A DNA stretch of 63,999 nucleotides, filler included, from an uncultured bacterium (GTDB taxonomy: Bacteria > DAOPZR01): NCBI GenBank assembly GCA_964637655.1. It is 16 parts of 16 records of this genome, joined end to end, with 100 filler letters (N's around TTAATTAATTAA, not from the genome) between each part and the next. Parts side by side here need not be neighbours in the genome. Positions count along the whole stretch, not along the records: positions 1 to 4,100 come from CAZWUZ010000312.1; 15 more parts are not named here. One strand, given 5' to 3'. A program made the translations under genes and the position numbers. Of this stretch, positions 1 to 12,382 are shown piece by piece (position 1 is the stretch's first letter; every line of letters starts with the position of its first letter). The notes under the pieces were generated by a model that was not told the origin of the DNA, made no database searches, and saw only the letters and a list, made by a program, of their open reading frames with translations.

Positions 1-521
1 CAGCGGTTGATGCCCGACCGACGCAGGTAATACAGCAGGTCCAGCGCTGTGAGCTCGGGCGACGAAACCCGGACATACCCGGCATCGGTCTTTTTCTTTT
101 CGATATCCTGCTCATCCCATTTGCCGGCAATGGGAAAATGAATGCTGTTTTTGCTGTTCATTATTGACCGCAATCGCGGGCGTACCGTCATCACCGCTGA
201 CGCCATCGGTTGCTGATGCCCGGCCCCGTGCAGCGCCGCAGCGGAAAACAGGGCAAGATAATATGGCTTTTTCAACCAGGCCATCAGCTGGTCAATGTAT
301 AAGTGGCAGGGCAGCATCCCGCTCCGCGAATATTCCGGGGGGATAATGGCATAAAAACCATTACGCACCAGCGCAATCAGCCCTTTTTTCTGATACCGGA
401 ATATGGCCTGCTCAACCGCTTTTTCCGAAACACCAAGAAATGCCCTGACCTCGTCCACAGTAAACGAGTACCCGCCCTGTGACCGCCGCTTCGTTATGAA
501 TGCGTTCAATCGTTCAGGCAT
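1..521 (-). CDS. Type IV toxin-antitoxin AbiEi-family antitoxin/regulator (3' end runs off window)
   Basis: Absent from the ORF track; translated by hand from ATG 521 (AAGGA RBS): MPERLNAFITKRRSQGGYSFTVDEVRAFLG...LIALVRNGFYAIIPPEYSRSGMLP...YYLALFSAAALHGAGHQQP...GYVRVSSPELTALDLL. The wHTH N-terminus and SAAxLHG/SPExTxLD motifs are typical of AbiEi. GC is lower than in the flanking DNA. Confidence 0.8.
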   Translation of the reverse strand, partial: MPERLNAFITKRRSQGGYSFTVDEVRAFLGVSEKAVEQAIFRYQKKGLIALVRNGFYAIIPPEYSRSGMLPCHLYIDQLMAWLKKPYYLALFSAAALHGAGHQQPMASAVMTVRPRLRSIMNSKNSIHFPIAGKWDEQDIEKKKTDAGYVRVSSPELTALDLLYYLRRSGINR

Positions 522-544
522 AACCGTCCTTATCACATGCGTAA

Positions 545-600
545 ATATGCGATACCATACGCTTGTCGTAGTATATCGCATATATTGACATATTTGTCAA
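545..600 (-). promoter_or_regulatory. abiEi promoter region with inverted-repeat operator
   Basis: ATATGCGATA (545-554) and TATCGCATAT (574-583) form an inverted repeat. TTGACA-TATT-TGTCAA palindrome at 585-600. On the minus strand, TTGACA (600-595) and TATACT (575-570) are 19 bp apart. Confidence 0.6.
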
Positions 601-633
601 GGGTTTTCGCTGTCACAGGCGGATCAATCCGAT

Positions 634-665
634 GGTCGCAGGTTCGAATCCTGCCGGGCGCGCCA
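634..665 (+). mobile_element. 3' fragment of a tRNA (Arg-like), probable att site of a tRNA-integrated element
   Basis: GGTCGCAGGTTCGAATCCTGCCGGGCGCGCCA is a T-arm, acceptor 3' strand and CCA. No matching 5' half (GCGCCCG..., D-arm, anticodon arm) lies upstream. Confidence 0.7.
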
Positions 666-673
666 GTACTGCT

Positions 674-1942
674 TCAGCGCACCGTGCGGAACAGGTCGGC
701 AGGCAGCGGGCAGCCGCGCTCCTTGAGCACGTCAAGGTAGCGCGAGGTGAGCCCCGTCGCCTGCAGGCGTGCCGCTTCTTTGCTGCCGCCCCACGCGAAC
801 AGGTCCTGCAGCAGTATGGTGTTTCCTTCCATCCCCTGGATTTCGCAGATTTTCGTGACGCAGCGTTTCCCCGCGGGGAAGCGGTCGAGGTGGACGATAA
901 TCTGCACCGACGAGGAAATCTGCGCGCGGATGGCGTCGGTGGTCAGCCCGAGCCCCGCCATCAGCACCATGGTTTCGAGCCGCGCGAGCACGTCGCGCGG
1001 GGTATTGGCATGGATGGTCGACATCGAGCCGTCATGCCCGCTGTTCATCGCCTGCAGCATGTCGAGTGCCTCGGGTCCGCGCACTTCGCCGACGATGATG
1101 CGGTTGGGGCGCATACGCAGGGCGTTGCGCACCAGGTCGCGCGCGTTCACCCGCCCCTTCCCCTCGACGTCGGGGAGGCGCACTTCCATCCCCGCGAGGT
1201 TCTTGCGCCCGAGGCGCAGTTCCGCGGCGTCCTCGATGGTGATCAGCCGCTCGTGCGCCGGGATGGTGCGCGCGAGGATGTTGAGCAGCGTCGTCTTCCC
1301 CGTACCCGTGCCGCCCGAGACGATGACATTGAGCCGCCCGCAGACGCAGGCGGTGAGGAACTGCGCCGCCGTCTCGGGGAGCGAGCCGCTGCTGATGAGG
1401 TCGGGCAGCGTCATCTGCTGCTCGGGGAACTTGCGCACGGTGAGCAGCGTGCCATTCAGCGCCACGGGGGGGATGACGACGTTGACCCGCGAGCCGTCAG
1501 GGAGCCGCGCGTCGACATAGGGCTGCGTCTCGTCGAGCCGCCTCCCGAGCGGGGAGACGATGCGGTCCGCCACCCGCCGCAGGTGATCCTCGTCCATGAA
1601 GCGTTTGCCGGTATCGTGCAGCACCCCGCCACGCTCAATGAAAATTTCGTGCGGACCGTTGACCATGATCTCGGTGACCGCGGGGTCGGCGAGGTAGGTG
1701 CTGATGGGTCCGTAGCCGGCGAGGTCGCTGACGATGTCGGTGGTCATCGCCTGCAGTGCCGCGCGGTCGATGGCGATCCCCGTCTCCGACGAACGCGTGA
1801 GCAGCGTGTCACTGACCAGCGTGCGCAGTTCCGCGATGCGCGGATCAATACTGCAGTCGAGACAGGAAAAATCGGGGATGGCGGTCTTTTCCTTGATCTC
1901 GTCGAACACCTGTTTCTGCAGTTGCCGCAGTTTCGCATCCAT
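674..1942 (-). CDS. cpaF: CpaF/TadA-family pilus assembly ATPase
   Basis: EIMVNGP, VDARLPDGSRVN, Walker A SGGTGTGKTT, IEDAAEL, ALRMRPNRIIVGEVRG, AMNSGHDGSMSTIHAN. Start at ATG 1942 after GAGGTG RBS. Confidence 0.92.
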   Translation of the reverse strand: MDAKLRQLQKQVFDEIKEKTAIPDFSCLDCSIDPRIAELRTLVSDTLLTRSSETGIAIDRAALQAMTTDIVSDLAGYGPISTYLADPAVTEIMVNGPHEIFIERGGVLHDTGKRFMDEDHLRRVADRIVSPLGRRLDETQPYVDARLPDGSRVNVVIPPVALNGTLLTVRKFPEQQMTLPDLISSGSLPETAAQFLTACVCGRLNVIVSGGTGTGKTTLLNILARTIPAHERLITIEDAAELRLGRKNLAGMEVRLPDVEGKGRVNARDLVRNALRMRPNRIIVGEVRGPEALDMLQAMNSGHDGSMSTIHANTPRDVLARLETMVLMAGLGLTTDAIRAQISSSVQIIVHLDRFPAGKRCVTKICEIQGMEGNTILLQDLFAWGGSKEAARLQATGLTSRYLDVLKERGCPLPADLFRTVR

Positions 1943-2005
1943 GAGCGTCACCTCGTCGTGCGGACAGGATAGCACCCGCCCCCCGCCGCGTCAATGCTGC
2001 CGGGG

Positions 2006-3565
2006 TTACGCCTTGCGGCACCAGAACCGGTACATCCCCAGGAACAGGCCCGGATACAATTCCTCCAGTTTCGCCCAGCAGGCGCAACTGTCGCCCGGGC
2101 CGCAGAGCGTCCGGTACAACCGGCGCGCCTCGCTGTCCGTGGCGAAGGCGAGCAGGGACAGCCCGAGCTCATCAAGCGCAGAGGCGATGCGCGGCAGCGT
2201 GAAACACTGTTCCCGGACGTGGAACAGCATATCGCGGCAGCCGCCAAGGTGGTAGAAATCGCGCAGCGCGGTGCAGCCAAAGGCAGGATGTTCACGCGGC
2301 AGCGCGCTGAGGTGCGCCCGCGCCGCGCGGATGCCATCCTGAGTCGGCGGCACGCCCATGTCGCGTACTGCTGCCTGCGCGGCAGTAATGCCGCGGCGCG
2401 CCGTTGCACTGTACAACCCGACGAGCATGACCCCGCCGGGGCGGAGCAGTCGCAGCAGGCGGCGCCAGCCGTCGAGCGGATCGTTGAGATGGTGCAGCAC
2501 GCCGGTGCAGATGATGGCATCGAACTCCCGTTCCCAGCCGTCGAGCCGGAGCAGGTCCGCCTGATACAGTTCGACGTCAATCCCCGCACGCTGTGCCATC
2601 AGCGACGCATAGGCCAGACTGCTGCGTGAGAGGTCAATCCCGGTGACCGAGGCCGGGCACCACGCGGCGGCGGCGGTCAGTAGTTCCTGCCCGGTACCGC
2701 AGCCGGCCACCAGCAGGCGCGGGCGCTGCAGGAATGCCGGCGGCTGCCACGTGCCGCCGGTCAGCAGGTGCAGGTGTTCCGCCAGCGTGACCCGTGCGCC
2801 GCGGGTCAGCCGGAACCAGCGTGGATAGGGGTGTGCTTCATACAGCGCGCGCACCTGCGCCGAGGTACCGTCCGCTATCGGGGTCAGCGACGGGATATTC
2901 TTCGCTCGCTCCGCCAGTTCCGGGTCAGCACTGCCGGGTTCGTACAGCGCGCGCACCCAGCCCGGCGCCGACGGGAGGCGCGCCGCTTCCTCCGCGCTCA
3001 CCGCCCAGGCCCCCTCGTTGAGCCGGCATTGCGCTGCCAGCGCGCCGGCCAGTTCCGGTGCTGTGCGCGGCGGGTTGAGACACCACTGCCGGCGCAGCCG
3101 GGTGAGTTCATCCTCGATTGTCAGGTCGGTCAGGATATCGCTGCGCAACACCACCTGCAGCAACGGATCATCGGTCAGCAACGGTGAATTTCCGAGCAGT
3201 ACCGCCGCGGCCGGAATCAGCGGCGCGGCCTCGAGGTGTTCACAGGCCAGGCAATCGGTCAGCTGCTGACGCGAGCGCAGGCGCAACGCCAGATACGGGC
3301 GGCAGGCCAGGCAGCGTGCCAGCCCGAGGCGACAACGCGCCTCGCCGGGATGACGCTCCAGCACCTGCTCAAAACAGGCCAGCGCCGCGCGGTACTGTCC
3401 CGTGCCGGCATAGAGTTCGCCAAGGGTGGTCAGCAGCAGCACCGAATCCGGCTGTCCGGCCAGCAACTGTTCGAGATGCTGCACAGCAGCGGTTTCGTTC
3501 CCCTGCCGGTAAAGCGCCATCGCCGCCGCCACCTCTGCGGCAGGCACTTCCGTCCCCGGCTGCAC
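2006..3565 (-). CDS. TPR-repeat + class I SAM-dependent methyltransferase
   Basis: N-terminal TPR helices (AMALYRQGN...LGELYAGTGQYRAALACFEQVL), YEAHPYPRW motif, motif I LVAGCGTG, GIDLS, FDAIICTGVLHHL, LRPGG. Confidence 0.85.
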   Translation of the reverse strand: MQPGTEVPAAEVAAAMALYRQGNETAAVQHLEQLLAGQPDSVLLLTTLGELYAGTGQYRAALACFEQVLERHPGEARCRLGLARCLACRPYLALRLRSRQQLTDCLACEHLEAAPLIPAAAVLLGNSPLLTDDPLLQVVLRSDILTDLTIEDELTRLRRQWCLNPPRTAPELAGALAAQCRLNEGAWAVSAEEAARLPSAPGWVRALYEPGSADPELAERAKNIPSLTPIADGTSAQVRALYEAHPYPRWFRLTRGARVTLAEHLHLLTGGTWQPPAFLQRPRLLVAGCGTGQELLTAAAAWCPASVTGIDLSRSSLAYASLMAQRAGIDVELYQADLLRLDGWEREFDAIICTGVLHHLNDPLDGWRRLLRLLRPGGVMLVGLYSATARRGITAAQAAVRDMGVPPTQDGIRAARAHLSALPREHPAFGCTALRDFYHLGGCRDMLFHVREQCFTLPRIASALDELGLSLLAFATDSEARRLYRTLCGPGDSCACWAKLEELYPGLFLGMYRFWCRKA

Positions 3566-3577
3566 CTCCGGTGCCGT

Positions 3578-4078
3578 TCAGCCGTACCCGCCGTTCCCGC
3601 CATTGCCGCCGTTGCCATAAACGAAAAAGAAACCGTTGCCGCCATTGCCGCCGGCCCCTCCGGTCCCGCCGTTGCCGCCGACACCGACAACCATGCCGCC
3701 GGCAACCGCTTTCAGTTCGTCTTCGCTCAGCGGTGCATCCTGCACGGGGGGGAGCGACAGCACGAGAAAGCGCTCGTTTTCGCTCTCCTGATGCAACCGG
3801 AGTTCGATGCCGCCCGCCAGCGGGAGCAGGCCGGCAAGCAGCGCCGCGAACTGTTCCTTCACCGCCGCGTGCAGCCGCACGGCGGGCGGGATGGCGACAT
3901 GCCTGAGGGTGCTGGTATCCTCCAGTACCGTCACGCGACAGCCGGCGGAAAGCGTCAGGCCGGCCGCGGTCAGCACGCCCACCGGGTCGGCGAGCAGTTT
4001 CCGGCGGCAGTCGCCGTCGCGCCACGCGCCGGCAATCACCCCGGCAAGCAGCGCCCGTTCAGTGTCGATGGCCGACAC
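3578..4078 (-). CDS. NHLP-leader RiPP precursor with Gly/Asn-rich core (may extend to contig edge at 4100)
   Basis: AWRDGDCRRKLLADPVGVL...VTVLEDT...HVAIPP leader; double-Gly cleavage motif LSEDELKAVAGG; core MVVGVGGNGGTGGAGGNGGNGFFFVYGNGGNGGNGGYG. Frame stays open upstream to the contig end. Confidence 0.85.
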   Translation of the reverse strand: MSAIDTERALLAGVIAGAWRDGDCRRKLLADPVGVLTAAGLTLSAGCRVTVLEDTSTLRHVAIPPAVRLHAAVKEQFAALLAGLLPLAGGIELRLHQESENERFLVLSLPPVQDAPLSEDELKAVAGGMVVGVGGNGGTGGAGGNGGNGFFFVYGNGGNGGNGGYG

Positions 4079-4100
4079 CTGCTTGTCGTTGATCGCCGAC

Positions 4101-4200
4101 NNNNNNNNNNNNNNNNNNNNNNNNNNNNNNNNNNNNNNNNNNNNTTAATTAATTAANNNNNNNNNNNNNNNNNNNNNNNNNNNNNNNNNNNNNNNNNNNN
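4101..4200. other. Artificial contig spacer (N-run with TTAATTAATTAA linker), first of 15
   Basis: Identical 100-bp spacers at 4101, 8299, 12497, 16659, 20797, 24928, 29054, 33148, 37234, 41293, 45351, 49406, 53458, 57494 and 61483. The linker gives stops in all six frames, and contig sizes decrease steadily. Confidence 0.99.
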
Positions 4201-4205
4201 GGTTG

Positions 4206-4402
4206 CGGCGGTCCGGGACGTCCCGCCGTACTGGCGTGGACCGGCGGCTCGGCGCAGCCTCGCCCTCCAGGTCTGTGGTGTGCTGGGGGGCGAGCCTGCG
4301 GCGGGGCGTCGCGGGTGGCGTTTGCGCGTGGTTTCGGCGGTCCGGGACGTACCGCCGTACTAGCGTGGACCGGCGCGGCTCGGCGCAGCCTCGCCCTCCA
4401 GG
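4206..4402. repeat. Two ~66-bp direct repeats, REP-like
   Basis: 4206-4271 and 4335-4402 both read CGGCGGTCCGGGACGT(C/A)CCGCCGTACT(G/A)GCGTGGACCGGC...GGCTCGGCGCAGCCTCGCCCTCCAGG. Confidence 0.8.
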
Positions 4403-4493
4403 GCTGCGGGCGAGTAACGAGTTGAGATAAGTAGGCTTAGAAAAAAGATGTTTTGACTTGAAACCGTACCTGTAAGAGGGATATATTCAAGAC

Positions 4494-5825
4494 ATGAGAA
4501 CGGTGATCGAACGGCTGGTGGGTGAGGCGCTGACGCGGCGGATACCGGAGACGGTGCCGCGTGACGTGCGCGTCAGAAAGATGCCGGGCAAGGTGTCGGT
4601 GCTGACCGGCATGCGGCGGACGGGCAAGACGTCGCTCTGTTTCCAGTCCATGCGCGAGCTGCTGGCCTCCGGGGTGGCGCGCGAGCGGCTGCTCTATCTG
4701 AATTTCGAGGACGACCGCCTTGCGGGGGTACGGGTGGGCGACCTGCAGTGGATCGTCGAGGCGTTTTACGGCGCGAACCCGCCGCTCAAGGAGCAGAACT
4801 GCTGGTTTTTTTTTGACGAGATCCAGAGGGTCGACCAGTGGGAGCTGTTCGTCCGCCGCGTTCTCGACACCGAGCGGGTGGAGGTCACGCTGACCGGCTC
4901 GTCGGCGAAGCTTTTGAGCAGGGAGCTCGGCACGGCCATGCGGGGGAGGTCGCTGGCCACGGAGGTCTTCCCGCTTTCTTTCCGTGAGTACTGCCGGTTT
5001 CAGGGCGTGCGCGTGCCGGAGCGGCCGGTCTATGGCGACCGCGACCGTTACGCGCTGGCGAAGGCGGCGGAAGGCTATCTGCGCACGGGGGGGTTTCCCG
5101 AAGTCCAGAAATGCGAGGAGGACGTCTGGCGGACGGTGCTTCAGGAGTATGCGGACGTGGTGATCCTGCGTGACGTGATCGAGCGGCACGGGCTGGGCAA
5201 CTATGCGGCGGCAAAAGCCTTGGCGCGGCACGTCGCGCAGAATCCGGGGCAACTGCTGAGCGTGACGCGGCTGGCGGCGTCGTTCTCGCAGGCGGGCATC
5301 GCGTGCGGCAAGAGCCTGCTGTTCGACGTTCTGGAGCATCTGCATGACGCCTACTTCTGCTTTCCAGTGGAGGTGCATGACCGGTCGCTGCGCAGGCGGC
5401 AGGTGAATCCCAAAAAGGTGTATGCGGCGGACACGGGCCTGTGCCGGGCCTTCTCGCCGGGGATCACGGGCGACAGGGGCGCGGCACTCGAGGGCGCGGT
5501 ATTCACGGCGCTGAGGGCGGGCGGCCTGCGCCCGGACTACGTGGTGACGCCGCAAAAGACCGGTGTCGACTTTGTCTACGAAGGCGGCGGGGGATGGCGG
5601 TTTGTGCAGGCGTGCTGGTCGCTGGCGGATGCCGGCACGGCGGCGAGGGAGTTCCGGGGGCTGGCGGACGCATTGCCGCTGCACCCGAAGGCTGGCCGTA
5701 CCGTTGTCACGTGGAACGAGGAGGGCGAACGCGAGGGCGTCCGCATCGTGCCGGCCTGGCGCTGGCTGCTGGAAGCGGGGGAGGACGGAGTGAAAGATGA
5801 GCGACAGTCCGAATACGCTGAATGA
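4494..5825 (+). CDS. AAA_14 + DUF4143 ATP-binding protein
   Basis: GMRRTGKT Walker A, YLNFEDDRL, FFDEIQ Walker B, LTGSS, GGFPE, PKKVYAADTGL, ALEGAVF, GVDF. Confidence 0.88.
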   Translation: MRTVIERLVGEALTRRIPETVPRDVRVRKMPGKVSVLTGMRRTGKTSLCFQSMRELLASGVARERLLYLNFEDDRLAGVRVGDLQWIVEAFYGANPPLKEQNCWFFFDEIQRVDQWELFVRRVLDTERVEVTLTGSSAKLLSRELGTAMRGRSLATEVFPLSFREYCRFQGVRVPERPVYGDRDRYALAKAAEGYLRTGGFPEVQKCEEDVWRTVLQEYADVVILRDVIERHGLGNYAAAKALARHVAQNPGQLLSVTRLAASFSQAGIACGKSLLFDVLEHLHDAYFCFPVEVHDRSLRRRQVNPKKVYAADTGLCRAFSPGITGDRGAALEGAVFTALRAGGLRPDYVVTPQKTGVDFVYEGGGGWRFVQACWSLADAGTAAREFRGLADALPLHPKAGRTVVTWNEEGEREGVRIVPAWRWLLEAGEDGVKDERQSEYAE

Positions 5826-5979
5826 GGACGCGACGCTGGCCGGGCCGGGCGCGGGGCGGCGGGCGGAGCTTGCGCCGGGCGCGCGGCTGGGGCGGTACGG
5901 GATCGTGCGGCTGCTGGGGCGCGGCGGCATGAGAGGTGCAGTTTGTTCTGACGTCTGTCTTCTGACTTCCGTCTTCTGA
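5797..5979 (+). pseudogene. Truncated duplicate of the Ser/Thr kinase N-terminus
   Basis: 5832-5931 matches 7319-7418 at 96/100 nt (TLAGPGAGRRAELAPGARLGRY.IVRLLGRGGM). Similarity ends in the Gly-rich loop and runs into heptamer repeats. Confidence 0.85.
5947..5979. repeat. Heptamer-type repeat (TTCTGAC-like), left arm of an inverted pair
   Basis: TCTGACGTCTGTCTTCTGACTTCCGTCTTCTGA; its reverse complement matches 7185-7217 at 29/33. Confidence 0.75.
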
Positions 5980-5988
5980 TTTTCACTC

Positions 5989-6017
5989 TTGACATGTTGA
6001 AAATCATCAGATAGCAT
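5989..6017 (+). promoter_or_regulatory. Sigma70 promoter, probably leaderless
   Basis: TTGACA-17-TAGCAT, with the ATG (6024) 6 nt downstream and no RBS. Confidence 0.6.
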
Positions 6018-6023
6018 ACCGAT

Positions 6024-7205
6024 ATGCAACATGAGTTAGTTCAGAGAAAAACCTTGCTGAGGGAGCTGGCGCTGCGGAGCGGCGAAGCGCCGGTGACGGT
6101 TCTGTTGGGCGCGCGCCAGGTGGGCAAGACCACGCTGGCGCACATGTTCTGCGTCGGGCGCGGGGATGTGGCGTGGTATGATCTGGAGACCTCGGCCGGG
6201 ATGGAAAGCCTGCGCGCCCTGCCCGAGAAAACCCTGGGGGGCAAACGCGGCCTGGTGGTGTTGGACGAGGTGCAGCGGATGCCTGACCTGTTCCGGCTCC
6301 TGCGGCCGCTGTGCGACCGCAAGGGGGTGCCCGCGCGGTTCCTGCTGCTGGGCAGCGCCTCGCCGGAGCTGATGCGCGGCGTCTCCGAATCGCTGGCGGG
6401 GCGCGCGCAGTTCCTGCACGTCCCCGGCCTGACCGTCGCGGAAGTCGGCGCGGAGAACCAGGACCGCCTGTGGATGCGGGGCGGGTTTCCCTCCGCGTAT
6501 CTCGCGAAAGACGCGGCGGCGGCCGGGCGCTGGCACGAGGGCTTTGTCCAGACGTTTCTGGAGCGCGACATCCCCCAGCTCGGCATCCGCGTGCCCGCCG
6601 CCGCCCTGCGCCGTTTCTGGGCCATGGCCGCGCATTACCACGGGCAGGTGCTGAACCTGGCGGACCTGGGGCGCGTGCTGGGCGTCTCGCCCGCGACGGC
6701 CCGCCATTATCTCGACATCCTGTGCGGTTCGTATGTGATGCGGCTGCTTCAGCCCTGGTTCGAGAACCTGGGCAAGCGTCAGGTCAAGTCGCCCAAGCTG
6801 TACTTCCGGGACAGCGGTCTCCTGCACTTCTTTCTCGGCACGGAAGGGATGGACGGTCTGCTGGCGCATCCCCGCCTCGGCGCGTCATGGGAGGGGTTCG
6901 CGCTGGAGCAGGTGCTGGCGCAGGTCGGAGAGCGGGACACCTATTTTTGGGCGACGCAGCGGGGCGCGGAGCTGGATCTGCTCGTCGTCCGCAAGGGGCG
7001 GCGGTACGGGTTCGAGTTCAAGGCCAGCGACGCGCCCAAGCTGACGCCGTCCATGCGTATCGCGGTTGAGGATCTGAAGCTCGACCGCCTGTGGGTGCTC
7101 CATCCGGCGGAGTCGGAGCCCTATGCGCTTGCCGAAAAGGTCGAGGCGTATCCGCTCAGAAAATGGACGACGCGGTGTCTGGAGTCAGTAGACAGAAGTC
7201 AGTAG
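6024..7205 (+). CDS. AAA_14 + DUF4143 ATP-binding protein
   Basis: GARQVGKTT, LDEVQ, LLGSAS, ESLAGR, GGFP, FLERDI, VKSPKLYFRDSGL, GASWEGF, ELDL, FEFK. Confidence 0.9.
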   Translation: MQHELVQRKTLLRELALRSGEAPVTVLLGARQVGKTTLAHMFCVGRGDVAWYDLETSAGMESLRALPEKTLGGKRGLVVLDEVQRMPDLFRLLRPLCDRKGVPARFLLLGSASPELMRGVSESLAGRAQFLHVPGLTVAEVGAENQDRLWMRGGFPSAYLAKDAAAAGRWHEGFVQTFLERDIPQLGIRVPAAALRRFWAMAAHYHGQVLNLADLGRVLGVSPATARHYLDILCGSYVMRLLQPWFENLGKRQVKSPKLYFRDSGLLHFFLGTEGMDGLLAHPRLGASWEGFALEQVLAQVGERDTYFWATQRGAELDLLVVRKGRRYGFEFKASDAPKLTPSMRIAVEDLKLDRLWVLHPAESEPYALAEKVEAYPLRKWTTRCLESVDRSQ

Positions 7206-7283: not shown

Positions 7284-8298
7284 ATGAATGAAAAACGGCA
7301 AACGATAAGTGACGACGTGACGCTGGCCGGGCCGGGCGCGGGGCGTCGTGCGGAGCTTGCGCCGGGCGCGCGGCTGGGGCGGTATGAGATCGTGCGGCTG
7401 CTGGGGCGCGGCGGCATGGGGCAGGTGTACCTGGCGCGGCACGGGCTGCAGAAGACCCTGCATGCGTTGAAGATCCTGCCGGCCGAGTTTTCGGGAAGGC
7501 CGGGCTTCGTGGATCGGTTCCGCACGGAGCTGCAGACCATGGCGCGGTTGCAGCACCCGAATATCGTGCATGTCACGCATTCCGACGAGGAGAACGGGCG
7601 CTACTATCTGGTGATGGATTTTGTCGCGGCGGACGGGACGGGGGAGCCGTACGACCTGGAGGAGGCGCTGGCGGTGGAGGGGCGTCTCGCGCCGGAGACG
7701 GTGCGGCGGCTGATGCTCGGGCTCTGCGACGGCCTTTGCCATGCGCACGGGCATGGCGTGGTCCACCGCGACCTGAAGCCCGCGAACGTGCTGCTGACCT
7801 CGAAGGACTTGTCCGCCGCGGATGCGAGGATCTGCGACTTCGGGCTGGCGCGTGTGGTCGGCGAGGAGCAGGTGCGCACGCTGGTGGCGCAGAGCATGCA
7901 GCGGTCGCTGAGTTTGGGCGAGAAGAGCACCTTTGTCGAGAAACGGCGCGAGGAGCGCAGCAGCACGGGGTCGGTGCTGGGGACCTACGGCTACATGAGC
8001 CCGGAGCAGGAGGAAGGCAAACCGGCTGACGGGCGCAGCGACCTTTACGCGCTTGGTGTGATGATGTACCGGATGATCACGGGCCAGCGGCTGCGTGGGA
8101 TGGCCAAACCCGCATCGCAGGTGGTGGAGGGTCTTGATCCGGCATGGGACGCGGTCATCGGCAGGTGCCTGGAGAATGATCCGGAGGCGCGGTGGCAGGC
8201 GGCGGGGGAACTGAAGGCGGCGCTTAGGAGAATAGGGGAGGGAAGTCAGAAGTCAGGAGTCAGAAGTCAGAAGAAGCGGGCGCTCGGGTTGGCTGCGG
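7284..8298 (+). CDS. Hanks-type Ser/Thr protein kinase (3' truncated by contig end)
   Basis: LGRGGMGQVY, HALK, HPNIV, HRDLKPANVL, DFGLAR, GTYGYMSPEQ, SDLYALG. Confidence 0.95.
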
Positions 8299-8398: not shown

Positions 8399-9356
8399 TG
8401 CGCGCCTGCATGATGTCATGGATTTGCAACAGTCCGACCGGCCGCTGTTCCTCTTCCACCACCAGCAGCGAGGTGATCTTGTGCTCGCTCATCTCCGCCA
8501 GCGCCGCCGCCGCCAGCGCCTGCGGCGCCAGCGTGCGCGGGTTGTGCGTCTGCAGCATGGCCGCGGTCAGCTCGCGCACGTCCGTATGCCGCTCCAGCAG
8601 CCGCCGCAGGTCGCCGTCAGTGATGATGCCCGTCAGCACCCCCCGCGCGTCGGTCACCGCCGTGCAGCCGAGCCGTTTTTCCGTCATCGCGCACAGCACG
8701 CGGGTGAAATCATCCGTCTCGCGCACCACCGGCAGCGCGTCACCGGTATGCATCAGGTCCGCGACCTGCACCAGCAGCTGCCGCCCGAGCGCCCCCCCGG
8801 GATGCAGCGCGGCAAAATCCTCGCGCGAAAACGCGCGGCGCGACAGCACCGCCATCGCCAGCGCGTCCGCCATCGCCAGCGCGGCCGTGGTCGAGGTGGT
8901 CGGGGCCAGTCCCAGCGGGCACGCCTCCTCCCCCACCCCGATATCGACGAACACGTCGCTGTGTTTCCCCAGCGTCGACTCGCGCCGCCCGCACAACGCG
9001 ATGACCGGCACCTGCAAACGCCGCAATGCCGGCAGCAGCAGTTTCAATTCGTCTGTTTCCCCGCTCGTCGACAGCGCGATGACCGTATCGCCGCGCGTCA
9101 CCATGCCAAGGTCGCCGTGACTCCCCTCGGCCGGATGCAAAAAGATGGCCGGGGTGCCCGTACTCGCCAGCGTCGCCGCCAGCTTCCGCGCTATCGCGCC
9201 CGACTTGCCCATGCCCGAAACCACCACCCGGCCGCGGCCGGTGACGATCAGGTCAACCGCGCGCAGAAACTCCGCATCCAGTCGCGCCCGCAGGGCGCCA
9301 ACCGCCTGCGCCGCCAGGTCCAGTGTCCGCTGTGCCGCCGCCAGGGTCGCGTCCAT
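8399..9356 (-). CDS. kdsD: Arabinose-5-phosphate isomerase, KpsF/GutQ family (last few codons lost at contig end)
   Basis: SIS domain GMGKSG, ASTGTPA, HGDLG, EACPLGLAPTTS, HPGG, followed by a CBS pair. Confidence 0.95.
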
Positions 9357-10189
9357 TACCAGCCCCCCTCCGCGCGCGCCCGCTGCATGATCTGCAGCAG
9401 CCGCAGCAGTTCGCCGAGGCGCGCCAGCGGCAGCATGTTCGGCCCGTCGCTCAGCGCCGTGGCCGGATCGGGGTGCGTCTCGAGGTAGATCCCGTCCGCA
9501 CCCGCCGCCAGCGCGGCCCGCACCAGCGGCAGAATGTACTGCGGGGCGCCACCCGACTTGTCCCCCTGCCCGCCCGGCGTCTGCACGCTGTGCGTCCCAT
9601 CGAACAGCACGGGCAGACCATGCGCGCGGATGGCAGTGAACGCGCGCATATCCACCACCCAGTTGTGGTAGCCGAACGCCGTGCCGCGCTCGGTGATGCA
9701 GACGCGGTCATTGCCCGCCGCACGCACCTTCTCCGCGGCATGCACGATATCTTCAGGCGCCAGCCACTGCCCCTTCTTGATGTTCACCGCTTTGCCCGTC
9801 GCCGCCGCCGCCAGCAGCAGGTCCGTCTGCCGGCAGAGGAAGGCGGGAATCTGCAGCAGGTCAGCCACTGCCGCCACCGGCGCCGCCTGCTCCGGCAGAT
9901 GCACATCAACCACCAGCGGCGCCCCGGTTTCCTGTTTCAGGTCCGCGAGCAGGCGCAGCCCCTCGTCGAGCCCGGGGCCCCGATACGCGCCGCGCGCGGT
10001 GCGGTTGGCCTTGTCGAAGGAGGCCTTCATGATGTAGGGGATGCCGGCCGCCGCCGCCTGCTCCGCCACGGTCAGCACCGTCTCGCGCTGAATGGCCGCG
10101 CTCTCGATCACACAGGGCCCCGCCAGCAGCACCGGCACCGCCCCGCCGATGGTGACGTTCCCGACCTGTACCGTCCGCACGTCGCTCAT
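9356..10189 (-). CDS. kdsA: KDO-8-phosphate synthase
   Basis: AGPCVIES, KASFDKANRT, QIPAFLCRQTDL, NIKKGQ, ERGTAFGY, DGTHSVQ, ETHPDP, SDGPN. Start MSDVRT. Confidence 0.95.
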   Translation of the reverse strand: MSDVRTVQVGNVTIGGAVPVLLAGPCVIESAAIQRETVLTVAEQAAAAGIPYIMKASFDKANRTARGAYRGPGLDEGLRLLADLKQETGAPLVVDVHLPEQAAPVAAVADLLQIPAFLCRQTDLLLAAAATGKAVNIKKGQWLAPEDIVHAAEKVRAAGNDRVCITERGTAFGYHNWVVDMRAFTAIRAHGLPVLFDGTHSVQTPGGQGDKSGGAPQYILPLVRAALAAGADGIYLETHPDPATALSDGPNMLPLARLGELLRLLQIMQRARAEGGW

Positions 10190-10190
10190 G

Positions 10191-11405
10191 TCAATGGTTG
10201 CCCCCAGCAAAGATATTTTCCTGCGGGTTGGCGTGCAGGCGCGCGGCGACCGCCGCGAGATCCTCCGGCGTGTCCACCCCGAGCGGCTCGCCGGCCACCG
10301 TCGCCACGCGCAGGCGCCCGCCCGCCGCCAGCCAGCGCAACTGCTCCAGTTTCTCGCGTTCTTCGAGGTCTGCCGCCGGCAGCGCCGCCCAGCGCGCCAG
10401 CGCGTCACGCCGGTAGACATAGATGCCCAGGTGCCGCCGGTACTGCGGCGCCATAGTCAACGGGGCGCGATGGAACGGAATCGCTGCGCGCGAAAAGTAA
10501 AGCGCATAGCCGCGGTCGTCGCAGACCACCTTGACCACGTTGGGGTTGTCCGCGTCAGCCGGAGCCAGCGGCACCGCCGCCGTCGCCACCTCGCCGTACG
10601 GGTCGTCGCGCAGCGCCTGCACCGCGCCGGCCACCGCCGACCCGGCAAGCAGGGGTTCGTCCCCCTGCACATTCACGATGATTTCCTCGTCACGCGTAGC
10701 CGCCACGCGTGCCGCGCGGTCAGTGCCCGACGCGCAGTCGCCCGTCAGCACCGCCTCGCCGCCGAAGGCGCGCACCGCGTCAGCGATGCGCTCGTCGTCG
10801 GTCGCCACCACCACCGCGCTGACGTTGGGCGCGGCCGCCGCCTGCCGGTAGACCCACTCGATCATCGGGTGGCCGGCAAGCAGCGCCAGCGGCTTGCCGG
10901 GAAACCGGGTCGACGCGTAGCGCGCCGGGATCACCGCCAGCACCCGCTCCGCCTGCGCCCGTTTGAGCATGTTCGTCGTCGAATAACCCGCCACGTAGGG
11001 GATGGCGCGCACCTCGCCGCCGCGCGCGCGCACGGTATCCGCGCCGACGATGGTGTCCGGGCTCCAGTCCCCGCCCTTGACCAGCACGTCGGGCTGTACC
11101 GCGGCAATCAATGCCGCCGGGGTCGCTTCCGCAAAGATAATGACATAATCGACGCAGGCGAGCGCGGCGAGCACCGCCGCGCGGTCATGTTCACTGTTGA
11201 CGGGCCGGCCCGGCCCCTTGCCCAGCATGCGCACCGAGGCGTCGCTGTTGAGCCCGACAATGAGACACTCCCCGAGCGCGCGCGCCGCCTGCAGGCAGGC
11301 GACATGCCCCGCATGCAGCAGGTCGAAACAGCCGTTGGTGAAGACCACCTTCGCGGGCCGCCGCTGCGCGGCGAAGGCCGCCGCGGTAATGACTTTGCCG
11401 TTCAC
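10191..11405 (-). CDS. kdsB: Fusion of heptose-1-P adenylyltransferase (RfaE2) and CMP-Kdo synthetase (KdsB)
   Basis: N-terminal [40 protein letters not shown]; then [59 protein letters not shown]. One uninterrupted frame. Confidence 0.9.
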
Positions 11406-12382
11406 AGCACGCCCCGCAGTTCCGCCGGGCTCACCGTGGCTGCACCGAGTTTGCCGACGACGATCCCCGCCGCGTGGTTGGCGAGCATCGCCCCCGCGGC
11501 ATAGGAGGCACCCGCCGCCCGCGCCAGCGCCAGCACACTGATCACCGTGTCGCCAGCGCCCGTCACATCGAACACCTTGCGCGCCACCGTCGGCACCGTC
11601 AGCGGCCGCCGGCCGCGTTCGAGCAGCAGCATGCCGTCGGGCCCGCGCGTCACCAGCAGCGCCTCGAGTTTCAGCCGCCGCAGCACGCGTTCACCCGCCG
11701 CCAGTTGCGCGTCGTACGTGCGCAGCGCCTGCCCGACCCCGCCCGACAGTTCGTGCACGTTCGGGGTCATCACCCCCGCCCCGCCGTATTGCGCGAAGTG
11801 CTCGATCTTCGGGTCGACCAGCACGGTAATCCCGCGCCGTCGCGCCAGCCCGATGAGCGTGCGGATCAGTTCCCGGCTGAACACCCCCTTGCCGTAGTCG
11901 GAGAGCACCAGCGCCTGCGCCTGCGCCAGTTCCCGCTGCACCGTCGCCACAAACTTCGCGCGCAGTCCCGCGTCGAGCGGTGCCGTCACCTCGCGGTCCA
12001 CCCGCACCACCTGCTGCGACTGCGCGATGATGCGCAGTTTGCGCGTGGTCGGACGCGCCGGGTCGGTAAGCAGGCCGGCCGGTGACAGGCCGCGATCGGT
12101 GAGCAGGCCGCGCAACTCCTCGCCCGCCGGGTCCGTGCCGGTGACCCCGATGAGCAGCGGCACACCGCCAAGCGCGCGAATGTTCTCCGCGACGTTGGCC
12201 GCGCCGCCGAGCGCCAGCGACTCACCCTGCACCGCGACCACCGGGACCGGTGCCTCCTGCGAAATGCGCTGCACCGCCCCCCAGACATACGCGTCGAGGA
12301 TGAGGTCGCCCGCGACCAGCACCCGGGTGCCCGCCAGTTTGCCCGTCAGCGCCCGCAGCGCCGCGGTGGTCACTCTGCCCAT
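11402..12382 (-). CDS. rfaE1: D-glycero-beta-D-manno-heptose-7-phosphate kinase (RfaE1/HldA)
   Basis: [57 protein letters not shown]. Confidence 0.93.

Follow-up and report, generated by a model that had tools for sequence, protein, structure and literature searches.

The window considered here is a stretch of 63,999 nucleotides from the genome assembly of an uncultured bacterium (GCA_964637655.1; lineage DAOPZR01), and it is made up of 17 contigs of ~1.2-4.1 kb which are ordered by size, separated by N spacers, and not neighbours of one another. This work concerns a pair of genes on the first contig (1..4100), and that 4.1-kb contig is the only true genomic context of the pair. One of the genes specifies a 166-amino acid protein in which a leader of the nitrile hydratase leader peptide (NHLP) type is followed by a short core composed largely of Gly-Gly-X repeats; the other specifies a methyltransferase in which tetratricopeptide repeats (TPRs) precede a class I domain that uses S-adenosylmethionine (SAM). 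The features of both are collected in Table 1. The two genes recur together in other genomes, and they may form a cassette for a ribosomally synthesized peptide with post-translational modifications (RiPP) related to the proteusins.

The precursor and its family

The reading frame of the precursor is uninterrupted up to the contig end at 4100, and the GTG start at 4078 is credible because all full-length homologues begin at the aligned position (MSESEKER vs M/V-SAIDTER). Against the TIGR03793 model of NHLP leaders, residues 9-66 score 47.0 bits (E 1.7e-12), under the curated cut-off of 50.9, and Pfam NHase_alpha is matched at 28.4, which passes its cut-off of 27.2. The open reading frame (ORF) with an NHLP-type leader described in the initial annotation is thus confirmed, with the reservation that the curated threshold of the more specific model is not reached. 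A further, weak match to thiocyanate hydrolase gamma / NHase alpha, over residues 87-125, suggests that more of the NHase alpha fold survives in this leader than in ordinary NHLPs.

Both elements expected at the end of such a leader, a double-glycine cleavage motif (LSEDELKAVAGG in the window) and a variable core, are present. The core reads MVVGVGGNGGTGGAGGNGGNGFFFVYGNGGNGGNGGYG (MVVGV...GGYG), and translation bears out the annotated length of 38 residues with 20 Gly (53%), 6 Asn and neither Cys nor Ser; there is also a single Thr, a FFFVY patch and no Lys, and each of the six Asn precedes Gly. The AlphaFold2 (AF2) model of the whole precursor, with a mean predicted local distance difference test (pLDDT) score of 46.6, is unusable.

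A search of 5.8 billion clustered proteins produced 26 homologues of 122-192 residues, all of which combine a leader of ~128 residues with a Gly/Asn-rich tail. The end of the leader, L(S/D)xEEL..V.GG, is near-invariant in the family, the L, V and G columns of L..EEL..V.GG being at least 90% conserved in the 27-row alignment, while the cores differ in sequence and in length (34-61 residues). At the level of sequence, this combination of a conserved leader and a variable core is the usual signature of a RiPP. The pooled cores contain 55% Gly and 13% Asn, followed by Ala, Leu, Phe, Ile and Val, with 0.1% Lys and no Cys; their non-Gly positions have an autocorrelation of 0.35 at lag 3, compared with 0.14 at lag 1 and 0.10 at lag 2, so that the cores can be described as (GGX)n runs interrupted by hydrophobic pairs (LF, IL, FF). 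The C-terminal endings are variable (YG, FFG, II, LL and GL are among them), and no conserved Lys column is found in the precursor alignment.

When the window leader alone was compared with 1.84 billion representative proteins, 629 of these matched at E<=0.001. Among the best 150 matches, 12 have tails of the GGN type and a further three, of which two rank among the closest matches, end in tails that are Asn-rich and polytheonamide-like; many of the more distant matches carry long hydrophobic tails (...VVLT/...VAT). The GGN family is on this basis a putative side branch of a large, long-leader superfamily of the proteusin type, from which the two-gene GGN loci would have retained only the leader and the TPR methyltransferase.

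Further short ORFs with NHLP leaders, matching only the first ~65 leader positions, occur in MAGs (metagenome-assembled genomes) that carry the pair (contigs of G002 and G003); three of them stand in tandem on one contig of G002 (C256, about 505..1682).

The methyltransferase

The precursor ends 12 nt before the longest ORF of the methyltransferase, on the same strand, as the initial annotation had it. The distance grows to 57 nt when measured to the ATG at 3520, which is the likelier start since it is preceded by a Shine-Dalgarno-like site (GAGGTGG) and is consistent with a database gene call of 504 residues.

The annotated architecture, a YExxPYPRW-type methyltransferase with TPRs, was recovered in full. 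Five residues of the motif (Y242, P246, Y247, P248 and W250) are invariant across 23 methyltransferase sequences, as are the SAM motifs A287-G292 (AGCGTG), D311, D337 and C353-H359 (CTGVLHH), and this invariance of the SAM-binding residues in the subfamily makes it probable that the enzyme is active. Its AF2 model is confident (pLDDT 90). Between the TPRs and the motif lies a helical middle domain (residues 89-232) which is well conserved, with many invariant residues, and which matched only unnamed clusters in the ESM Atlas. The number of TPRs, by contrast, differs among relatives that are 59-66% identical (513-715 residues, against 519 for the window ORF), and the repeats are for this reason not obviously the element that recognizes the leader. 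The wider family of TPR methyltransferases is large, with 3963 matches at E<=0.001 among 8000 candidates scored.

Among the matches listed, the methyltransferase domain is closest by sequence to Mycobacterium tuberculosis Rv2067c (8HKR; E 3.2e-23), and sequence and fold searches agree in listing as the nearest solved relatives the protein-lysine N-methyltransferases Rv2067c and Rickettsia PKMT1 and PKMT2, with which the window enzyme has in common the fold of the methyltransferase and C-terminal domains. Rv2067c is described in PMC10739865 as a protein-lysine methyltransferase that acts on H3K79. LahSB (6uak) is also among the sequence matches, at E 7.5e-8, and no match to PIMT-type families was found in Pfam or NCBIfam.

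The initial annotation had taken as its precedent PoyE, the enzyme that N-methylates Asn in polytheonamide. The PoyE homologue AerE (7RC2-7RC6) is reported in PMC9060474 to have GenN and PrmC as its closest neighbours, and AerE is absent from the 60 listed of 79 sequence matches in the PDB (E<=1), from the listed Foldseek matches and from the 50 listed VIA matches of the window enzyme, an absence that is no proof in itself. As far as tested, then, the window methyltransferase appears not to be of the PoyE/AerE type, and PoyE and AerE would serve as a functional analogy for it and not as homologues.

Conservation of the pairing

The association of the two genes was surveyed from both sides. The methyltransferase-side survey took one genome per species, used the alignment of 23 methyltransferases, kept 80 loci (L001-L080), and searched these for precursors with a hidden Markov model and tblastn; the precursor-side survey was a metagenome scan that gave eight loci (L081-L088), of which about six are independent, L082 and L083 being duplicates and L088 looking identical to L002.

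In all eight loci found through the precursor, the methyltransferase lies immediately upstream of it. Among the eight genome loci with the closest methyltransferases, the precursor is adjacent in five, in the same operon in two, and absent in one. The five adjacent cases (L001-L004 and L008; methyltransferases 50-66% identical) have it immediately downstream of the methyltransferase, the copy in L001 being cut at a contig end and continued on another contig; in L006 and L007 (42-43% identical) one operon includes both genes, a few kb apart; and L005 (42% identical), whose cluster runs off either end of an 11-kb contig, yielded none. No precursor was found in any of the 72 distant loci (L009-L080), where the methyltransferase is 26-43% identical, mostly over the methyltransferase domain only. 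A scan by composition (30-residue windows with at least 14 Gly and at least 4 Asn) flagged precursor ORFs only, in 10 of the 88 loci and in none of L009-L080. In addition, eight clusters of methyltransferases and eight clusters of precursors pair up by identical longest-contig size.

Besides the window, 13 loci thus have the two genes side by side, and two more have them in one operon. The flanks vary: Thermoleophilia-like MAGs have GDPD and MCRA there, L004 has an alpha/beta hydrolase, and L086/L087 have a sulfate permease or a carboxylesterase. Since the family and the pairing both recur in other genomes, the association is more than chance, and the pairing that the initial annotation put forward is conserved across several lineages. 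Further maturases past the contig end, for which that annotation had left room, are not expected, because the relatives with intact flanks have a two-gene cassette.

Structure prediction of the complex between the methyltransferase and the precursor fell in the class of 'weak support', with a median ipSAE (interaction prediction score from aligned errors) of 0.51 over three runs (0.51, 0.43 and 0.80) and 0.01 for the best of three controls. The partner pLDDT was at least 61, and the runs agreed in at least 21% of contacts. In a calibration that is rough for the alignments used, 58 of 80 solved complexes and 2 of 110 mismatched pairs attained the mark; at scores of 0.60 or below, only 7 of the 80 solved complexes reached it, together with both of the passing mismatches.

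Two of the loci have peculiarities of their own. In L008 (3688..5871) the methyltransferase match occupies two frames, one at 3688-4185 and the other at 4187-5215, and the precursor tail runs into a non-Gly extension, probably through indel errors, the MAG being a long-read one, or through decay of the cassette. In L001 (2621..4411, minus strand) a radical SAM (rSAM)/SPASM maturase, whose best NCBIfam matches are the ACGX-system and SbtM-like models, stands next to an NHLP precursor of the ordinary kind, with a Cys-rich core (…VAGGGSGCSGSC). This Cys-core system is situated just upstream of the methyltransferase-GGN pair, so that two NHLP systems stand side by side. The rSAM genes upstream of the pair were considered as its partners and rejected, since they appear to serve the separate Cys-core precursor.

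Relatives in proteusin-type clusters, and export

The three loci with the more distant methyltransferases (L005-L007), which come from MAGs labelled Vulcanimicrobiota and Myxococcota (L006 the latter, L007 the former), are full clusters of the polytheonamide type which contain the TPR methyltransferase inside their operons. Each has two or three rSAM epimerases of the PoyD family (TIGR04517; all above cut-off except a truncated copy) and two to four RiPP rSAM C-methyltransferases (TIGR03975), and L005 has a match to the NHLP export ABC (ATP-binding cassette) subunit (TIGR03797) at 705.3 bits, against a cut-off of 709.4, in an ORF cut by the contig end. The precursors of L006 and L007 score above the TIGR03793 cut-off (78.4 and 70.8 bits, respectively) and have the extended leader in its entirety, to which the window leader aligns from end to end; their cores are Asn-rich and polytheonamide-like (...NVNVGGNVNAG..., e.g. 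...GANVNDAVNVNEGANVNVGGNVNAGVNVNAGVDINAAAVAFVAT), and their TPR methyltransferases are 42-43% identical to residues 6-518 of the window enzyme. Among the ORFs scanned in L005 and L007, the TPR methyltransferase is the only class I methyltransferase. ORFs of 460-506 residues in the three loci were considered as AerE-like enzymes and rejected, since they have no PDB matches and NCBIfam identifies them as PoyD-family epimerases.

These loci look like uncharacterized producers of beta-helical proteusins. The link to proteusins drawn in the initial annotation is upheld by them, since the same leader and a 42-43% identical methyltransferase occur in clusters with PoyD and TIGR03975 enzymes and beside Asn-rich cores. 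The PoyD-family epimerase itself is present only there; none was found on the window contig or in L002-L004, L008 or L082-L088.

As far as the contigs reach, no NHLM-type export genes with C39 or ABC domains were found on the 4.1-kb contig, which ends at 4100, or within 10 kb in the two-gene loci. At least one ORF with a C39 domain was found on another contig in each of the five MAGs with the pair. The literature that was covered, from which subscription journals and supplements were outside the scope, has no description of an NHLP core with Gly/Asn repeats or of a TPR methyltransferase in a proteusin cluster.

Other genes of the window

All four genes of the first contig are on the minus strand. 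A gene for a CpaF/TadA-type secretion ATPase begins 30 nt past the stop of the methyltransferase and is followed by a truncated AbiEi-like antitoxin gene; neither adjoins the pair in any other locus. The ATPase was considered as a member of the system and rejected, since no tblastn match at E<=1e-5 was found in the 80 genome loci, nor one in L081-L088. No tRNA was found on the contig, and a scan for promoters and terminators gave nothing beyond shuffled expectation (one promoter-like site where 0.6 were expected, and two terminator-like sites where 2.6 were expected).

Table 1. Features of the first contig, with positions counted along the window.
Feature	Position	Strand	Basis
Precursor gene, 166 residues, GTG start, TGA stop at 3580..3578	3578..4078	-	ORF; TIGR03793 and NHase_alpha matches; 26 homologues of the same architecture
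Extended NHLP-type leader, residues 1-128, ending LSEDELKAVAGG	3695..4078	-	~50-58% identity across the family
Core peptide, residues 129-166, 38 residues, (GGX)n repeat	3581..3694	-	Translation, composition, period-3 signal
TPR and class I SAM methyltransferase, longest ORF 519 residues; likely start ATG 3520 (504 residues)	2006..3565	-	
TPR region, residues ~9-88, ~2.5 repeats	3302..3541	-	Pfam TPR_19, TPR_2, TPR_14; helices 9-88 in model
YEAHPYPRW motif, residues 242-250, N-terminal edge of methyltransferase domain	2816..2842	-	Translation
Rossmann SAM-binding core, residues ~280-390	2396..2728	-	Methyltransf_25/11/12 at 286-381, E 1e-17 to 1e-18
CpaF/TadA-type secretion ATPase	674..1975	-	T2SSE E 2e-61; TIGR03819 338 bits, under cut-off
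Truncated AbiEi-like antitoxin gene	3..581	-	Follows the CpaF/TadA-type ATPase gene

The N runs between the contigs include a TTAATTAATTAA stop linker. Among the 48 ORFs scanned on the other 16 contigs there were no C39, NHLP-exporter or PoyD-like genes. The second contig holds two tandem genes for AAA_14 + DUF4143 ATPases (4494..7205, plus strand), followed by a Ser/Thr protein kinase gene (7284..8297). Positions 8400..12382 (minus strand) hold KdsD/KpsF-like (SIS+CBS), KdsB-like (CTP_transf_3) and PfkB-kinase genes, which are typical of the synthesis of the lipopolysaccharide core. The presence of KdsB-, KdsD- and HldE-like genes on other contigs of the window hints that the host, if the bin is clean, is a diderm, unlike the Actinomycetota-labelled MAGs which contain the closest relatives of the pair, and a diderm host would in that case point to horizontal spread of the cassette.

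Discussion

A reading of the locus as a RiPP system resembling the proteusins is largely supported by these results, while homology to PoyE and the details of binding through the TPRs, both of which were part of the initial proposal, are not supported. The system is classed here as one of two genes, derived from the proteusins, whose core is (GGN)n and whose TPR methyltransferase is PKMT-like. In the mechanism proposed here, the 128-residue nitrile-hydratase-like leader would recruit the adjacent methyltransferase and so dock the precursor, and the enzyme would methylate the 38-residue (Gly-Gly-X)n core repeatedly, likeliest on the side-chain amide nitrogen of Asn in the GGN units, as a functional analogue and not a homologue of PoyE/AerE. 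Cleavage of the leader would presumably follow the AVAGG double-glycine site, and a C39-peptidase ABC transporter whose gene lies elsewhere would then export the peptide. The parts of this mechanism are not equally secure. That the methyltransferase modifies the core is probable; the composite statement, in which the two genes are a RiPP cassette that descends from proteusins of the polytheonamide type and has a core methylated likeliest on Asn side chains, is about evenly balanced; and the assignment of the methyl groups to Asn N-delta in particular is more tentative and falls somewhat short of an even chance. Of the nucleophilic side chains, Asn alone occurs both in the GGN cores and in those of L006 and L007, which favours the idea of Asn methylation that was present in the initial annotation, and N-methyl-Asn is given in PMC11285071 as the hallmark SAM-dependent modification of the polytheonamide class.

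The comparison with characterized systems sets out what is shared and what is not. The polytheonamide and aeronamide pathways comprise the PoyA/AerA precursors, the PoyD epimerase, the PoyB/C rSAM C-methyltransferases and the Asn N-methyltransferase PoyE/AerE, and like the window system they combine a long NHLP-type leader with a Gly-Gly end, a repetitive core that contains Asn, and a SAM methyltransferase partner. They differ from it in that no epimerase or rSAM enzyme lies beside the two-gene loci, and in that the window core has a GGX period and the Gly content noted above, whereas a polytheonamide-type core alternates Asn with hydrophobic residues. The absence of an epimerase beside Gly-rich cores would make chemical sense: since Gly is achiral and takes D-like backbone angles without epimerization, such cores need no rSAM epimerases. 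The protein-lysine methyltransferases Rv2067c, PKMT1 and PKMT2 act on Lys in folded proteins and, in contrast to the window enzyme, are taken here to be without its N-terminal TPRs, conserved helical middle domain and peptide-precursor partner, and its likely substrate has no conserved Lys. PrmC/HemK, which methylates Gln N5 at the GGQ of release factors, is conceptually similar to the proposed methylation of a side-chain amide nitrogen directly after Gly-Gly, and PrmC, which is cited in PMC9060474 as a structural neighbour of AerE, provides a precedent for amide methylation in that context; the similarity of PrmC to the window enzyme in sequence is marginal (4dzr, E 0.04; TIGR03534, E 3e-5, far under cut-off), so this is an analogy only. 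Gly-rich bacteriocins with double-glycine leaders (class II microcins) have short leaders (about 15-25 residues) and usually no modification enzyme. Like the window precursor, they have a Gly-rich, Cys-poor peptide after a Gly-Gly site, with C39 ABC export to be expected; unlike them, the window system has a 128-residue NHase-like leader domain and a dedicated methyltransferase that is conserved.

Several points weigh against the mechanism as a whole or against particular steps of it. The methyl acceptor is assigned from composition and context only. The fold neighbours of the enzyme methylate Lys, which is not conserved in the precursor; the similarity of class I methyltransferase folds is a poor predictor of the acceptor atom. 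The score of the window precursor against TIGR03793 lies below the curated cut-off, and the order of the two genes in the window (precursor, then methyltransferase) is the reverse of that in each of the 13 other loci where they adjoin. The two-gene loci have no adjacent peptidase or exporter, and C39 domains were also found in 7 of 14 control genomes. In the proteusin-type clusters, two small ORFs of L007 lay outside the scan for class I methyltransferases, and L006 has a second, AprA-MT1-like methyltransferase that could fill the role of PoyE there. It is also doubtful that the product forms a membrane channel like that of polytheonamide, since a Gly-rich peptide has few hydrophobic side chains.

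Three other readings of the data have to be weighed against the proposed one. The evidence for the pairing would be identical if the system were a RiPP precursor and its maturase with an acceptor other than Asn, such as the new N-terminal amine left once the leader is removed, backbone amides, the C-terminal carboxylate, or the Asp/isoAsp produced by deamidation at Asn-Gly. Asn-Gly is the most deamidation-prone context, and all six Asn of the window core stand in it; LahSB, moreover, is among the sequence matches of the enzyme. The N- and C-termini of the core are, on the other hand, unconserved, the Asn residues of the L006 and L007 cores do not precede Gly, so that a target based on deamidation would not be shared with them, and the enzyme lacks the PIMT-type match in Pfam or NCBIfam; methylation at a site other than Asn is on these grounds rather unlikely, though N-terminal and carboxyl methylation by class I enzymes of RiPP pathways such as LahSB are known, and cases of this sort are covered in a review of RiPP methyltransferases (PMC11285071).

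The absence of an adjacent peptidase or exporter from the two-gene loci would be equally natural if the 166-residue product were not cleaved at all, but were a small protein that joins an NHase-alpha-like domain to a Gly-rich tail, such as a structural or surface element of the polyglycine-II type, which the methyltransferase acts on or regulates. Polyglycine-II helices, with three residues per turn, are found in Gly-rich proteins such as the snow-flea antifreeze protein and the PGRS domains of mycobacteria, and the strict GGX period would fit them; the methylation of folded proteins by the nearest solved relatives of the enzyme would fit as well. An uncleaved protein is nevertheless improbable, since the leader has the conserved double-glycine end typical of cleaved NHLP/Nif11 precursors, homologous leaders occur in bona fide proteusin clusters, one of them with an NHLP exporter match, and a conserved leader with a hypervariable tail is what a RiPP would present. 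Finally, the adjacency may be without meaning, with the methyltransferase serving some other substrate. The family is large and mostly lacks such precursors (0/72 loci), and the GDPD and MCRA flanks are also syntenic in the Thermoleophilia-like loci, so that conservation could partly reflect relatedness. Against this, the pair persists with other flanks and in reversed order in the window, it is found in the Myxococcota- and Vulcanimicrobiota-labelled loci within operons for peptide modification, and the CpaF-like neighbour in the window recurs in 0/80 loci, which indicates that unrelated neighbours are quickly lost; a meaningless adjacency is accordingly very improbable.

A bolder version of the proposed mechanism, in which the beta-helical proteusins gave rise to the (GGN)n peptides as a branch without epimerases, achiral Gly takes the place of the D-residues, and a single PKMT/Rv2067c-like TPR methyltransferase, as a non-homologous replacement of PoyE, lays down a ladder of N-methyl-Asn along a Gly backbone, is speculative and on balance unlikely. 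If it is true, the (GGN)n product would be a kind of peptide scaffold not seen before, with the form of a beta-helix or of a polyglycine-II mini-bundle.

The proteusins are a RiPP class known for extreme modification and for potent channel-forming cytotoxins, and if the proposed mechanism is correct they gain both a new type of core and a new family of maturases. The system could supply, for use in peptide engineering, an iterative peptide amide N-methyltransferase unrelated to PoyE/AerE, and its two genes suit heterologous expression. It would also provide the first testable substrate for one branch of the very large, uncharacterized YExxPYPRW TPR-methyltransferase family. The occurrence of the same leader and methyltransferase in full clusters and in two-gene cassettes would, in addition, constitute a natural experiment on how a RiPP pathway shrinks as the chemistry of its core changes.

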